A DNA stretch of 64,000 bases. Origin: a bacterium. Its GTDB lineage: Bacteria; Patescibacteriota; Minisyncoccia; 2-01-FULL-47-10; JBBIMT01. The DNA is taken from NCBI GenBank assembly GCA_037443185.1, contig JBBIOV010000001.1:10866-74865 (forward strand), read 5' to 3'. The notes below the pieces were generated by a model. The model was not told the origin of the DNA. It ran no database searches and worked only from the letters and a program-made list of their open reading frames with translations. Numbering within the stretch: the stretch's first letter is position 1; each line of letters opens with the position of its first letter. This document shows, one piece after another, positions 44,582 through 64,000 of this stretch. The position numbers were made by a program, and so were the translations under genes.

Positions 44582-44652
44582 AGCGAGCGAGGGGAATCGA
44601 ACCCCCATCTCAACCTTGGGAAGGTTGCATTTTGCCACTAAACTACACTCGC
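44582..44652 (-). tRNA. tRNA-Gly (anticodon CCC), 71 nt, CCA not encoded
   Basis: Reverse complement folds as acceptor GCGAGTG/CGCTCGC, D-arm GTTT-AGTGGCA-AAAT, anticodon arm CAACC-TTCCCAA-GGTTG, T-arm GGGGG-TTCGATT-CCCCT, discriminator U. It ends 3 nt before the GT3 start codon. Confidence 0.8.
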
Positions 44653-57422: not shown

Positions 57423-57629
57423 TTACATTTTCCCCCCTTTGCGAAAACCTCTACTAAAATTCTGGCGCCTTTGTTGATTACATTCTCGACAATAAACAGG
57501 ACGATTTGCATCTGGCTGAAAAGGAAGTTCCGTAATTGGAATCTGACACTGAGCGCACTTTAAATTCATCGATGTTACATCGAACATCTGTCTTTGAAAG
57601 CCGCTCTGTGATCTATCTTGGAAGGCCAT
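57423..57629 (-). CDS. Small (68 aa) CxxC...CxxC zinc-ribbon protein with a basic tail
   Basis: KCAQCQIPITELPFQPDANRPVYCRECNQQRRQNFSRGFRKGGKM. The same C-x2-C...PFQPD..RPV(Y/F)C-x2-C motif recurs in the C-terminus of the 60474..62372 protein. Confidence 0.45.
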   Translation of the reverse strand: MAFQDRSQSGFQRQMFDVTSMNLKCAQCQIPITELPFQPDANRPVYCRECNQQRRQNFSRGFRKGGKM

Positions 57630-57844: not shown

Positions 57845-57919
57845 TACCGCCAACCGGATTTGAACCGGTGTTTCATGGCTGAGAACCATGTGTCCTAAAC
57901 CAGACTAGACGATGGCGGC
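57845..57919 (-). tRNA. tRNA-Glu (anticodon CUC), 75 nt, CCA not encoded
   Basis: Reverse complement: acceptor GCCGCCA/TGGCGGT (G1:U72), D-arm UCGUCUAG..GGAC typical of tRNA-Glu, anticodon arm CATGG-TTCTCAG-CCATG, T-arm ACCGG-TTCAAAT-CCGGT. Confidence 0.75.
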
Positions 57920-60473: not shown

Positions 60474-62372
60474 TTATTTAAGTTTGATGGTTTGGCCTGG
60501 TTTTAATATCTTCTTTTTGTTATCATTTAGTGATTTTGACGCAGCAATTACTTCTTCAGGCTCTTGGTTCTGGTCAATCGTAGTATCTTTTGTTAAATTA
60601 TTTGTGCTTTTTATATTTTTTTTATTACTTAAAATTTCGCTTAACACTTTTTTAAGTTCTTCTTTGGGTGTTACCTCTTTTTTTTGTTTAATATCTGATT
60701 GTTCTATCTCTTCTTTAATTTTTTGTAAAATATCAAGATTTGCGCTTTTTGGTGTTAATTTGATATCGGTTAACAATCTTTGATTTTTATCATCATAAAA
60801 TAAATAACTTGACAGGGTCGGAATAATTCCTTTGGCTTTCAAATTTTGAGATTTTTTGAAACATTTTTTGCAAAAAACAGGTCTTTTTCCGTCAGGCTGA
60901 AAAGGAACTTTTACAGCTCCATTACATTTCCAACAAGCAGCAAAGAATTTTTGGGTTAATTTAACAAGGGGATGGCCTTTTTTTTCAGAACTTGAAACAT
61001 CAATCTCTTCCTTTTGTTTTATCTCTGGTTTTTTCTTTCTATCTTCTTTTGAAGGAAGATTTTCTTTTAAAATTTGATTTTCTTCAGTCTCAAAACCAGC
61101 CCATTTATTAATTTTTGCCTCTATCTCTTTTTTAGACAAAGCAAAATTATAACGAGATTGTTTTATGATTTTGTTTCTGTTGCTTTTTTTCAATTTTTGA
61201 GGACTTGGCAATGTATGAGCCGAAAAAGGATCGGTAACAATTCCATCAATCATCAATTTGATATAGATATTATATTTCGGTAAATTGATAATATCATTCA
61301 TCGTAAAAATTGGTGAAAATTCTTTCTCTAAAAATTCAGCATCTTCAGCGCCAACTCTAAAAGCAATAATTGTGCCAACATTACCAAAAATTGCATCTCT
61401 TAAAGTAGTTCCCATTTTTTCGCTATAAAGTTGAGCAATGTACTGATGCGCTAAAATTAAAGAAAGCCTATATTTTCTTGCTTCAGATAAAATATTAGCA
61501 AAAGATTCATTGGCGAAATTTTGAAATTCGTCAACATAAAGATAAAAATCATTTCGTTGCTCTTCGGGTATATCAACCCTTGACATAGCTGCTAAATATA
61601 GTTTTGTTATTATAAGTCCACCAAGAAGCTTTGAAACATCTTCGCCTAATTTACCTTTGGAGAGATTAACGATTAAAATCTTTTTCTTATCCATAATTTC
61701 TCTTAAATCAAAAGCAGTTCTTGTTTGTCCGATAATATTTCGAATGATGGAAGCGGTGATAAATTGTCCTACTTTATTTTGAATAGCAGCGACGGCTTCA
61801 GTGGCAAATTGTTTAGAATATTCAGCAAACTCATCAACCCAAAAACTTTTGACTACCGGATCGGTTAAGCGATTGACGATTTTATTTCTAAATTCCTTAT
61901 CGGATAAAATCCTCATTATACCAAGCAAAGTTGAACCCGGATATTCAAGTAAAGCTAAAATAGCGTTGTTCAAAATATATTCCATTCGCGGCGACCAAAC
62001 ATCAGGCCAAATTTTTTTAAAAACACTCATTACTCCTGCTGCCACTAAATGTCTAGTTTCAGGGTCTACATTTTCCAAAACATTAAAACCTATGGGGTAC
62101 TCAATGTCGGCTGGATTAAAATAAATCACATCATTAATTCTGTTTGAAGGAATATAATCTAATAATTTATCAGCAAACTCTCCGTGAGGATCAATAACGC
62201 CCACTCCGTTGCCATTTTGAATATCCCAAACTGCCATATTTTCTAAAAGAGTAGTTTTGCCAACGCCAGTTTTTCCGATAATATAAATATGCCGTCTTCG
62301 GTCGTCTTTTTTAATACCAAAAACTTTCTTTTGATTTCTGAAAGTTGTAATACCAATCGGGGTAATATCCAT
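60474..62372 (-). CDS. VirD4/TraD/TraG-like type IV coupling-protein-family ATPase with a C-terminal CxxC zinc ribbon and a Lys-rich tail
   Basis: Walker A IIGKTGVGKTTLL, Walker B LYVDEFQNFAN, TraG-D_C-like region, then AACWKCNGAVKVPFQPDGKRPVFCKKCFKK and about 110 aa of K/E-rich low complexity. Confidence 0.6.
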   Translation of the reverse strand: MDITPIGITTFRNQKKVFGIKKDDRRRHIYIIGKTGVGKTTLLENMAVWDIQNGNGVGVIDPHGEFADKLLDYIPSNRINDVIYFNPADIEYPIGFNVLENVDPETRHLVAAGVMSVFKKIWPDVWSPRMEYILNNAILALLEYPGSTLLGIMRILSDKEFRNKIVNRLTDPVVKSFWVDEFAEYSKQFATEAVAAIQNKVGQFITASIIRNIIGQTRTAFDLREIMDKKKILIVNLSKGKLGEDVSKLLGGLIITKLYLAAMSRVDIPEEQRNDFYLYVDEFQNFANESFANILSEARKYRLSLILAHQYIAQLYSEKMGTTLRDAIFGNVGTIIAFRVGAEDAEFLEKEFSPIFTMNDIINLPKYNIYIKLMIDGIVTDPFSAHTLPSPQKLKKSNRNKIIKQSRYNFALSKKEIEAKINKWAGFETEENQILKENLPSKEDRKKKPEIKQKEEIDVSSSEKKGHPLVKLTQKFFAACWKCNGAVKVPFQPDGKRPVFCKKCFKKSQNLKAKGIIPTLSSYLFYDDKNQRLLTDIKLTPKSANLDILQKIKEEIEQSDIKQKKEVTPKEELKKVLSEILSNKKNIKSTNNLTKDTTIDQNQEPEEVIAASKSLNDNKKKILKPGQTIKLK

Positions 62373-62585
62373 ATAATAACAGATTAAAACTTATGAAAAA
62401 GATTTATCAAATATCAAACTTTAAATAAAAAATAGGATAGATAATCGCCAACAATTATAAATATCAATTTAAAAAATTATAAATTGAAACTTATTAAATT
62501 GTAAAATGTTTAGTTATTAGCTCTTAATAAATAATTCATTTTACAAATTTTATCACTCATTTAATTGATTATCGATATCTTTTTA

Positions 62586-63845
62586 TTATATTGTTGGCAG
62601 GGTTGCTGGAGGAGAGCCTTTTTGAAATTGAACTCTTTCAACAGTAGGGGTTGGAACTTCACGACCAGGGAAATGATAAATTGTTGCTAATTCTTCAATA
62701 TTTAAGATAAAATTTTTATTTTTAGAAAAATCGGGACTACGCCAGCGATATTTTTTAAGCAGCATTCTTTTACGCTCAAATACTCTATAATCTTTGAAAA
62801 AATAATCTAATTTAGTAACAGTATCAGGATCAAGTCTTATGCTGCTTTCAGTTTGTGAAGCCAAAGTTCTTAAAATACCCAAAAAAGCATAGCCATGTCT
62901 TCTAACAAAACGGTCCTTTTGTGCAAGATAAATAATCCTTAAAGTAGTTGCCCAACCAACCTTTGAGCATTTTCGATAAATTGCTCTCATTAATTGAACC
63001 TCAGTTTCAGTGGGCCAACGAAATTCAAGCTTTTGTTCTTTTTCAGATTTATTTTTTGATAAAGGATTAAGAGCGTTTAATGATTCTTTAAGACCAGCAC
63101 TAAGAGCTTCCATAAACGCAGGAATTTCTTCTTTGGAGCGATCTGACAATTCTTCAATCTTCTCAAGTCCTTTTTTTTCCCAACCAAAATATGGCTCGAT
63201 GATAATTTGCATCCAAAAATGTTCATTAATGTTTGTTAAAGAGAAAAGTTCAACTATATTAGCAATTGGATCCACTTTACTTTCAGTTTCGGTAATTTTA
63301 TCAAGTTCCCAGTCAACATAAGTTCTAATAGGTAAATAATATTCTTCTGGTTTATTAAATTGGAATTCAGTCCCTATCATTGCCCAACCGGATTCTTCAG
63401 TAATTCCAGCATCGAGAGGCACTTTATATGTATAATCTTCTGCTGGATCAATAATTTCAGCGCTGGGATATTGAGCATAAATTTGAGAAATCAACCATCT
63501 TTTTCTAACTTCCGGAACTTTGATATAAAAATGAACTTGCCCATCAAAACCTGCTATTTCCAATGATAAAGTTAATGGAAATTCGCCATCTATATATTTT
63601 TCCACTCTTAATAAATTCCGATGCATTCCATGCATTTGAGCAAACAATGCTTCCATTGCTTTAGGGCTTTTAGGTACTTCTCTTGGTATTCTAATTTCTA
63701 TTAAATGACGCGGCGTGGTTTCGACAAATCTGTTCGAGGCATATTCAACCCATAATTCAAAAAAAATGCCGTATAAAATTATCGGTAACACTAACCACCA
63801 CCAATCAGACAATAACTTAAAAAAATTTTCTAAAAAAATGTCCAT
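62586..63845 (-). CDS. Hypothetical 419-aa protein with an N-terminal TM helix, immediately upstream of the VirD4-like ATPase
   Basis: WWWLVLPIILYGIFFELW TM segment; the rest is soluble, Trp/charged-rich, with no motif recognised. Confidence 0.35.
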   Translation of the reverse strand: MDIFLENFFKLLSDWWWLVLPIILYGIFFELWVEYASNRFVETTPRHLIEIRIPREVPKSPKAMEALFAQMHGMHRNLLRVEKYIDGEFPLTLSLEIAGFDGQVHFYIKVPEVRKRWLISQIYAQYPSAEIIDPAEDYTYKVPLDAGITEESGWAMIGTEFQFNKPEEYYLPIRTYVDWELDKITETESKVDPIANIVELFSLTNINEHFWMQIIIEPYFGWEKKGLEKIEELSDRSKEEIPAFMEALSAGLKESLNALNPLSKNKSEKEQKLEFRWPTETEVQLMRAIYRKCSKVGWATTLRIIYLAQKDRFVRRHGYAFLGILRTLASQTESSIRLDPDTVTKLDYFFKDYRVFERKRMLLKKYRWRSPDFSKNKNFILNIEELATIYHFPGREVPTPTVERVQFQKGSPPATLPTI

Positions 63846-64000
63846 TTTCTTCCTACCCTTTTTAAAAAAATATTTTGAGAAAAAACGCAGAAAATTAAAT
63901 CTCTATCATTTTAACTTTTGTCTTGAAGCATAAATTTTCCATCAGTGGTCTTTTTAAACAATTTGTTATTTTGCAAACTAAGCAAAATAGTGTTTGGCTT

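Follow-up and report, generated by a model that had tools for sequence, protein, structure and literature searches.

A predicted type IV coupling protein carried on two adjacent genes in a conserved chromosomal gene cluster of Patescibacteria

What is a coupling ATPase doing on a bacterial chromosome with none of its usual partner genes beside it? Patescibacteria make up a large and poorly understood share of bacterial diversity, and in their one genetically tractable species, Southlakia epibionticum, a type IV secretion system (T4SS) is essential, yet its gene cluster contains no recognisable coupling protein (Wang et al. 2023). Orphan type IV coupling proteins (T4CPs) far from virB4 are already known from the phylum; VirD4-type T4CPs were counted at 5,713 copies in 2,918 of 3,035 Patescibacteria genomes, only 148 of them near virB4, while VirB4 was found in 2,417 genomes and relaxases in 103 (Quinonero-Coronel et al. 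2025, PMC12102498). The stretch of DNA studied here (64,000 nt of contig JBBIOV010000001.1, assembly GCA_037443185.1; hereafter the window) carries a gene for such an ATPase, of 632 amino acids (aa), preceded on the same strand by a gene for a 419-aa protein. An earlier note on the window had read them as a coupling ATPase with an unusual C-terminal fusion and an unknown membrane-anchored protein, together forming a compact and possibly novel translocation module. We find instead that the two gene products correspond in sequence to the two modules of one T4CP, which also occurs elsewhere as a single chain, and that their genes belong to a widely conserved, syntenic chromosomal cluster.

Both open reading frames (ORFs) are present as that note had them, at 60474..62372(-) for the 632-aa protein and 62586..63845(-) for the 419-aa protein. 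The VirD4/TraD-like core claimed for the former holds up well, since Walker A (GKTGVGKT, residues 33-40) and Walker B (YVDEFQNF, residues 279-286) fall in invariant columns of the ATPase alignment, and the Pfam models TrwB_AAD_bind (PF10412, 52.6 bits, cut-off 20.5), TraG-D_C (PF12696, 33.8 bits, cut-off 22) and DUF87 all score above their cut-offs. The nearest solved structures by sequence are TrwB of R388 and DotL, and a Foldseek search with the AlphaFold2 (AF2) model (predicted local distance difference test, pLDDT, 72 overall and >90 in the core) returned TrwB (E 5e-9), DotL and Cag-beta first, followed by DndH, HerA and the VirB4 C-terminal domain. On the strength of these sequence and fold matches, the protein is a predicted TrwB/VirD4-type coupling ATPase that begins where the soluble domain of TrwB begins; it belongs to no named TraD subfamily, as the NCBIfam TraD equivalog models score far below their cut-offs. 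As in other T4CPs, an all-alpha domain is inserted in the nucleotide-binding domain. A transmembrane (TM) anchor in the same chain, which a T4CP would be expected to have, is absent (no hydrophobic segment in a hydropathy scan of the ATPase), and the company of a T4SS or relaxase is missing in so far as neither VirB4 nor a relaxase is encoded in the window or in L001, a contig carrying an identical 419-aa gene. The family is very large, with at least 8,000 scored candidates, all of them matching, and among the matches listed identity stays at 50-65% across Moran-, Nealson-, Pace-, Portnoy- and Staskawiczbacteria; against TrsE and TrsK of pGO1 the ATPase profile detects similarity at the P-loop level only.

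The 419-aa protein was described in the earlier note as having one TM helix and no recognisable domain, of which the first part stands and the second does not. Although our local Pfam scan gave no match, a precomputed Pfam match to PF26449 (DUF8128) exists for the exact protein and for 118 of the 120 best homologues listed. At least 694 homologues were found in a first search, and 3,733 clusters (50% identity) match the profile of our DUF8128 alignment at E<=1e-3, the best 150 of which are all stand-alone proteins of 344-551 aa. The AF2 model (pLDDT 81, predicted template modelling score 0.77) begins with a long helix, residues 2-43, and invariant or near-invariant columns of the alignment (E385, L386, A387, Y390, H391, P393) gather in a motif, LNIEELATIYHFPG, near the C-terminus. 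No paper naming DUF8128 was found in a literature search, and the profile returned nothing meaningful from the sequences of the PDB.

The relation between the two proteins became evident from plasmids. When the ATPase core was compared with PLSDB by tblastn, 788 plasmid records matched (111 of the plasmid matches are in Pseudomonas), and the match on Bacillus methanolicus pBM69 covers only residues ~325-712 of an 833-aa protein annotated as 'DUF87' (BMMGA3_RS16220). The DUF8128 profile aligns with residues 53-307 of that same protein (hhalign probability 98.3%, E 1.2e-14), and hmmsearch places DUF8128 at 53-313 (64.9 bits) and the window ATPase profile at 329-755. A 913-aa protein on a plasmid of B. 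subtilis DSM 5611 (P5635_00045) gave nearly the same result (98.1%, E 1.3e-13), a 1193-aa T4CP on a plasmid of the haloarchaeon Haladaptatus (LIX00_RS23515) a weaker one (85.8%), and an 812-aa T4CP of the actinobacterium Embleya (OG928_RS01290) a weak but colinear one (21%). All four share the module order of the window pair, i.e., a DUF8128-like N-domain ending in ELAxxxxxP...PP and then the P-loop/all-alpha ATPase; they differ from it in being one polypeptide, in being plasmid-borne and in lying near VirB4-like and Replic_Relax or Tcp genes. After the pBM69 gene, which is part of a conjugation cluster, come genes for a Replic_Relax protein, conjugal transfer proteins and a VirB4-type ATPase (AAA_10, 860 aa). 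The B. subtilis gene lies upstream of the TcpD/TcpE genes of its cluster, the Haladaptatus gene is beside a VirB4-like gene, and the Embleya gene has a VirB4-like ATPase on one side and a Replic_Relax gene on the other, with a gene of the PrgI family further upstream.

The same two modules are also joined in other metagenomic contigs resembling the candidate phyla radiation (CPR). For this comparison, the two window proteins were joined end to end and compared with a large protein database, the 120 best matches being listed, and 43 of these 120 are natural single chains of 849-1072 aa that carry both PF26449 and PF10412 (precomputed Pfam) and share 40-46% identity with the concatenate over 93-100% of its length. 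Only the concatenated query found these forms, the top 150 of the DUF8128 profile being stand-alone proteins. Eight single chains aligned with the concatenated pair run continuously through the junction; the corresponding segment of the single chains lines up with the LNIEELATIYHFPG motif, and the break between the window genes falls in a short, variable linker that has '...KKGEPPxNLP' on one side and '...TxFRxxxxxFGIKxDDRRRH' on the other. Since the plasmid and single-chain proteins hold both modules, these comparisons show the pair to be a predicted split T4CP, two modules of one coupling protein on two genes, of which the 419-aa protein supplies a single TM anchor and an alpha/beta N-domain, and DUF8128 to be the N-terminal module of a T4CP class that, as far as sequence can tell, exists in both split and single-chain versions. 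The 419-aa protein is thus not the unknown separate component it had been taken for but, in effect, a known T4SS component, namely the N-terminal domain of the same T4CP. The parts of the pair are as follows.

62586..63845, minus strand: 419-aa DUF8128 protein, the predicted N-terminal, membrane-anchored half of the split T4CP (PF26449, hhalign, AF2)
63747..63803, minus strand: single N-terminal TM helix, residues ~15-33, WWWLVLPIILYGIFFELWV (hydropathy; conserved hydrophobic block in the DUF8128 alignment)
62664..62705, minus strand: conserved LNIEELATIYHFPG motif near the DUF8128 C-terminus, just before the ATPase domain in single-chain forms
62373..62585, minus strand: AT-rich spacer between the halves, 213 nt, 16% GC (composition)
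62505..62476, minus strand: promoter-like TTTACA-18-TATAAT in the spacer
61098..62372, minus strand: predicted T4CP ATPase core, residues 1-425, with P-loop domain and all-alpha insertion and no TM helix (Pfam, solved relatives, Foldseek)
62253..62276, minus strand: Walker A
61515..61538, minus strand: Walker B

The spacer of 213 nt is long compared with the median gap of 17 nt in other genomes, and together with the promoter-like site it suggests that the ATPase may be transcribed separately in the lineage of the window, although the scan for promoters and terminators gave nothing above chance in such AT-rich DNA.

Two-gene T4SS ATPases have precedents. In pIP501 the coupling protein TraJ is proposed to be membrane-anchored by the separately encoded TraI (PMC12857230), but TraI is a small two-TM protein rather than a DUF8128 protein of ~420 aa, and the system is plasmid-borne and conjugative. 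In pGO1 a gene for a VirB4 N-terminal-like domain, trsD, lies directly upstream of a separate ATPase gene, trsE, as in the window pair, and TrsD homologues are common in Patescibacteria (PMC12102498); however, TrsE is a VirB4 and not a T4CP, and the hhalign probability of DUF8128 against TrsD is 0.1%. The canonical T4CPs, i.e., TrwB of R388, VirD4, TraD and DotL, share the P-loop and all-alpha domains with the pair and give its best sequence and fold matches, but they have their own two-helix N-terminal TM domain, no DUF8128 and no zinc finger, and they are encoded together with a relaxase and a T4SS.

The fold of DUF8128 may point in a further direction. In a Foldseek search with its model, the 13 best matches are all TrwK/VirB4 chains from cryo-electron microscopy of R388 (E 3e-5 to 1e-3, probability >=0.98, template modelling scores only ~0.3). 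Since TrwB, HerA and the isolated VirB4 C-terminal domain are missing from the list, the likeness would, by exclusion, lie in the N-terminal domain of VirB4. No sequence-level relation emerged when the DUF8128 profile was compared with the VirB4 of pBM69, TrwK of R388 and TrsD of pGO1, and we regard the possible relation to the N-terminal domain of VirB4 as no more than a lead; if true, a VirB4-like fold of DUF8128 would have a bearing on the divergence of the VirB4 and VirD4 ATPase families.

Beyond its core, the 632-aa protein continues into a C-terminal extension, which the earlier note had presented as a fusion foreign to canonical coupling proteins.

60948..61097, minus strand: variable K/E-rich linker, residues 426-475 (composition; unalignable in the ATPase alignment)
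60849..60947, minus strand: CxxC-x17-CxxC zinc finger (zf_Tbcl_2 / TIGR04272), Cys 480, 483, 501 and 504 (hidden Markov model, HMM, scores)
60477..60848, minus strand: Lys-rich, mostly disordered tail, residues 509-632 (composition, model confidence)
60624..60683, minus strand: conserved tail helix KKEVTPKEELKKVLSEILSN, residues 564-583
60477..60509, minus strand: terminal motif ILKPGQTIKLK, residues 622-632

The finger itself is real (PF23477, 39.3 bits, cut-off 27; TIGR04272, 38.8 bits, cut-off 36), with a spacing of 17 rather than the 16 residues first given (C480...C504), and its four cysteines, F491 and P493 are invariant in the ATPase alignment. In distant Methanosarcina members of the CxxC-x17-CxxC domain family zinc binding has been demonstrated experimentally (PMC12704099). 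As a peculiarity of this protein the fusion does not survive comparison, because the finger is present in 117 of the 120 best database matches of the ATPase and in 30 of 60 full-length DUF8128-linked ATPases of a species-level sample; it is absent from all 43 of the single-chain proteins with DUF8128 and PF10412 and, in a Pfam scan, from the plasmid single-chain proteins. The finger is therefore neither peculiar to the window protein nor universal, and about half of the orthologues have it. Linker residues 436-472 are predicted with pLDDT <50, and the tail after the finger is K/E-rich and disordered as had been claimed, its 124 aa comprising 19% Lys and 8% Glu with mostly low pLDDT. Two elements of this tail, an amphipathic helix '(K/R)KEV(D/N)LxxLRKxLEE' and a terminal '(I/L)KPGExIKF', recur in orthologues with or without the finger, and the terminal KPGExIKF-type motif is common to split and single-chain orthologues. 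T4CPs use their C-terminal tails to dock relaxosome accessory proteins, as F TraD does with TraM, or adaptor proteins, as DotL does. By analogy, a docking role would be the most economical reading of the extension here.

The same CxxC-x17-CxxC finger is found free-standing in the window, in a 68-aa ORF at 57423..57629(-) (PF23477 42.3 bits, TIGR04272 43.9 bits) situated downstream of both the ATPase gene (by 2.8 kb) and a tRNA-Glu (57845..57919, by ~215 nt). In two related loci (L092:10732-11661 and also L093:4231-5160) a 309-aa protein with a weak N-terminal match to a TFIIB-type zinc ribbon (E 2.7e-4, below cut-off) is encoded directly 3' of a single-chain DUF8128-T4CP that lacks the zinc-finger tail, and in genomes of this type the finger may be supplied in trans by that protein.

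Whether the pair is a module of its own was addressed by comparing its surroundings in one genome per GTDB species, which gave 80 loci and, with L001, 81. Nearly all of the 80 are labelled as Patescibacteria or as generic bacterial metagenome-assembled genomes (MAGs), and the few other labels are apparently mislabels: L013, L020, L035, L041 and L075 hold genes typical of Patescibacteria under public labels of Bdellovibrionales, Gammaproteobacteria or Pacearchaeota and are probably mislabelled MAGs. The same gene pair recurs widely: where there is room for it, in 79 loci, the ATPase gene is the next one downstream of the DUF8128 gene, in the same orientation, in 67. In the other 12 (among them L018, L022, L036, L042, L050, L053, L062, L069 and L070) DUF8128 follows the upstream gene described next with no ATPase within 10 kb, and in 10 of these 12 a YceG (MltG-like) gene comes next.

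According to ORF clustering, a protein of ~347 aa is encoded directly upstream of DUF8128 in 78 of the 81 loci, at a median gap of 35 nt. It combines a sigma region 4 of the RpoD type (E 1e-19 against sigma factors of solved structure) with HARE-HTH domains like that of the RNA polymerase delta subunit (hereafter sigma4/HARE-HTH); compared with a Replic_Relax protein, its profile showed no relation. Two single-chain orthologues, in otherwise different housekeeping surroundings, also start 3-20 nt after such a gene. Because an exact search with the ATPase gene matched no record, the surroundings beyond the window were reached by way of the DUF8128 gene. In L001 the order upstream of that gene is SecD, SecF and the sigma4/HARE-HTH gene (L001:3721-4740), of which the window retains the end.

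63911..64000, minus strand: Sigma70_r4 + HARE-HTH gene, 3'-terminal 29 codons (sequence identical to that in L001)

SecD/SecF genes are neighbours in 47 loci, MnmA in 29 and the alanyl-tRNA synthetase in 25, with SecA and elongation factor P in fewer. The cluster is thus chromosomal and conserved across the sampled CPR lineages, is not an integrative and conjugative element (ICE), and is consistent with vertical inheritance, so that the pair does not form the compact novel module that had been proposed for it.

That it lies outside any conjugative element, as the earlier note had also held, is supported by this setting. The opposite view, that an integrated conjugative or mobilisable element left the pair behind or carries it as cargo, could appeal to the closest relatives outside the CPR, which are on plasmids and in conjugation clusters, and to a GC content 1.9 points over the window mean. 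However, many CPR lineages have the order SecD-SecF-sigma4/HARE-DUF8128-T4CP, with ATPases 50-65% identical, and the pair is flanked by housekeeping genes (GlmS, SecDF, and a tRNA-Glu 2.5 kb away). A tblastn search of 1.37 Mb of related loci with VirB4 and relaxase queries from plasmids turned up neither, although the reach of such queries is limited and integrases and bounding repeats were not specifically searched for. The local rise in GC is genuine but trivial, the 31.3% of the pair against 29.5% for the window being the 96th percentile of same-size windows and within the range of other conserved window genes. tRNA genes occur in the window only at 44582 and 57845, neither of them adjoining the pair, and an Rfam scan of 57-64 kb found tRNA-Glu only. 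We consider a mobile origin of this kind extremely improbable. It is also true that no other T4SS gene lies in the window, but this is weak evidence, because the pair stops 155 nt short of the window edge.

The same loci bear on a role in anti-phage defence, in which the ATPase would be part of a system of the MADS mad8 or HerA type. The PADLOC mad8 model matches residues 5-371 (E 5e-18) and HerA models match more weakly, and some defence systems employ soluble ATPases of the T4CP-like and HerA kinds, with SIR2-HerA and DUF4297-HerA in the Foldseek list; the mad8 match itself indicates that soluble T4CP-like ATPases have been recruited to defence elsewhere. Against this, no other defence gene is adjacent, the DUF8128 partner has no PADLOC match, neither mad1-7 nor nuclease/SIR2 partners recur in the 80 loci, and a gene found in most of the phylum, strictly syntenic and highly conserved, does not resemble part of a defence island, which leaves this explanation highly unlikely.

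Essentiality data are available from S. epibionticum (Wang et al. 2023 tables). There, SEML1_0294 (349 aa, Sigma70_r4 + HARE-HTH) is essential by transposon sequencing, and directly downstream of it lies SEML1_0293 (921 aa), whose T4CP domains begin at residue ~400; the tables mark both genes as core and as Patescibacteria-enriched. The T4CP position and the neighbouring gene are as in the window pair, but SEML1_0293 is apparently a single chain.

These data also bring in a further alternative, that the protein is a septal chromosome-segregation translocase replacing FtsK, for which one could cite the common ATPase superfamily of T4CPs and FtsK and the position of single-chain orthologues near ftsQ and mur genes in some contigs. 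Yet S. epibionticum has a canonical and essential FtsK (SEML1_0096, comprising 4TM, alpha, motor and gamma domains), whereas SEML1_0293 is dispensable, and a Pfam scan finds no FtsK gamma domain in the window protein; the chance that the pair replaces FtsK is accordingly very slim. The ICE, defence-system and FtsK-replacement readings are each poorly supported and were rejected.

We consider a T4CP split at a domain linker, together with the following mechanism, to be the probable explanation as a whole. By analogy with TrwB and VirD4, the two polypeptides would come together as a hexameric translocase, tethered at the membrane and driven by NTP, with the C-terminal extension as a docking platform for substrate or adaptor, as the tails of F TraD and DotL are. 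The motor would pass its substrate, nucleic acid or nucleoprotein, to the MPF-FATA-like T4SS found elsewhere in most Patescibacteria genomes, and the sigma4/HARE-HTH protein, presumably DNA-binding and co-transcribed, would be a candidate adaptor. That tblastn found neither VirB4 nor relaxases in the 1.37 Mb of related loci agrees with the count of 148 among 5,713 T4CPs near virB4.

Several observations weigh against this explanation. T4CPs occur in 96% of Patescibacteria genomes and VirB4 in 80%, and relaxases are nearly absent from the phylum (PMC12102498). No T4SS gene lies within 10 kb in any sampled locus, and the Bacillus single-chain proteins as annotated are without a TM helix. In S. 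epibionticum SEML1_0293 was scored non-essential although the T4SS is essential, its normalised reads going from 5817 to 1372 over two passages, and a different T4CP-like protein, SEML1_0142, is essential, which together make an obligatory role as T4SS receptor unlikely in that species. SEML1_0293 is an apparent single-chain counterpart of the pair, an assignment that rests on published domain coordinates and the neighbouring gene, with DUF8128 in its N-terminus presumed.

Since these data argue that this T4CP is not required for the essential work of the T4SS in S. epibionticum, there is room for a T4SS-independent role such as DNA uptake. The split T4CP would then be an exapted, T4SS-free DNA-handling motor, e.g., an inward motor of ComEC-dependent uptake in the place of ComFA, with the sigma4/HARE-HTH protein or the finger tail binding DNA. 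Exaptation of T4CPs was raised by the authors of PMC12102498 as something that cannot be excluded, and it would suit the greater spread of T4CPs than of VirB4, their almost invariable distance from VirB4, the dispensability of SEML1_0293 beside an essential T4SS and the conserved linkage to a gene for a DNA-binding protein. Furthermore, the S. epibionticum tables list ComEC, ComFC and DprA but not ComFA, with DprA five genes from SEML1_0293. However, ComFA is possibly just unannotated, neither comEC nor a pilus gene is recurrently adjacent, and the T4CPs characterised to date work with a T4SS. On balance we think this unlikely, if worth weighing.

A bolder version is, in our estimation, quite unlikely. 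In it, the sigma4/HARE-HTH - DUF8128 - T4CP operon would be a self-contained nucleic-acid translocator of Patescibacteria that works without a VirB4 T4SS, e.g., as the missing ComFA-like motor of ComEC uptake or in the export of DNA or nucleoprotein. The KPGExIKF tail would be the docking site of the essential sigma4/HARE-HTH protein, as the TraD tail is of TraM, and DUF8128 would mark a T4CP lineage with a retained VirB4-type N-domain, intermediate between the two T4SS ATPase families.

For the split T4CP that we favour, the main gain is the assignment of DUF8128, a family of thousands of sequences, as the N-terminal, membrane-anchored module of a distinct T4CP class, and the tight, widely conserved linkage of this T4CP to a sigma-region-4/HARE-HTH gene whose S. 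epibionticum counterpart is essential. Because the role of DUF8128, the split and single-chain forms and this linkage come together, the near-universal orphan T4CPs of the phylum gain a concrete and testable handle.

Finally, two of the loci have another T4CP gene a few kb downstream of the first one, a more divergent paralogue with 43-46% identity to the window ATPase (L012:5677-6900 and L019:20489-21262). The L012 copy, a complete ORF of 478 aa, is without the zinc finger, and the presence of a second paralogue in both loci fits the ~2 T4CP copies per genome in PMC12102498.

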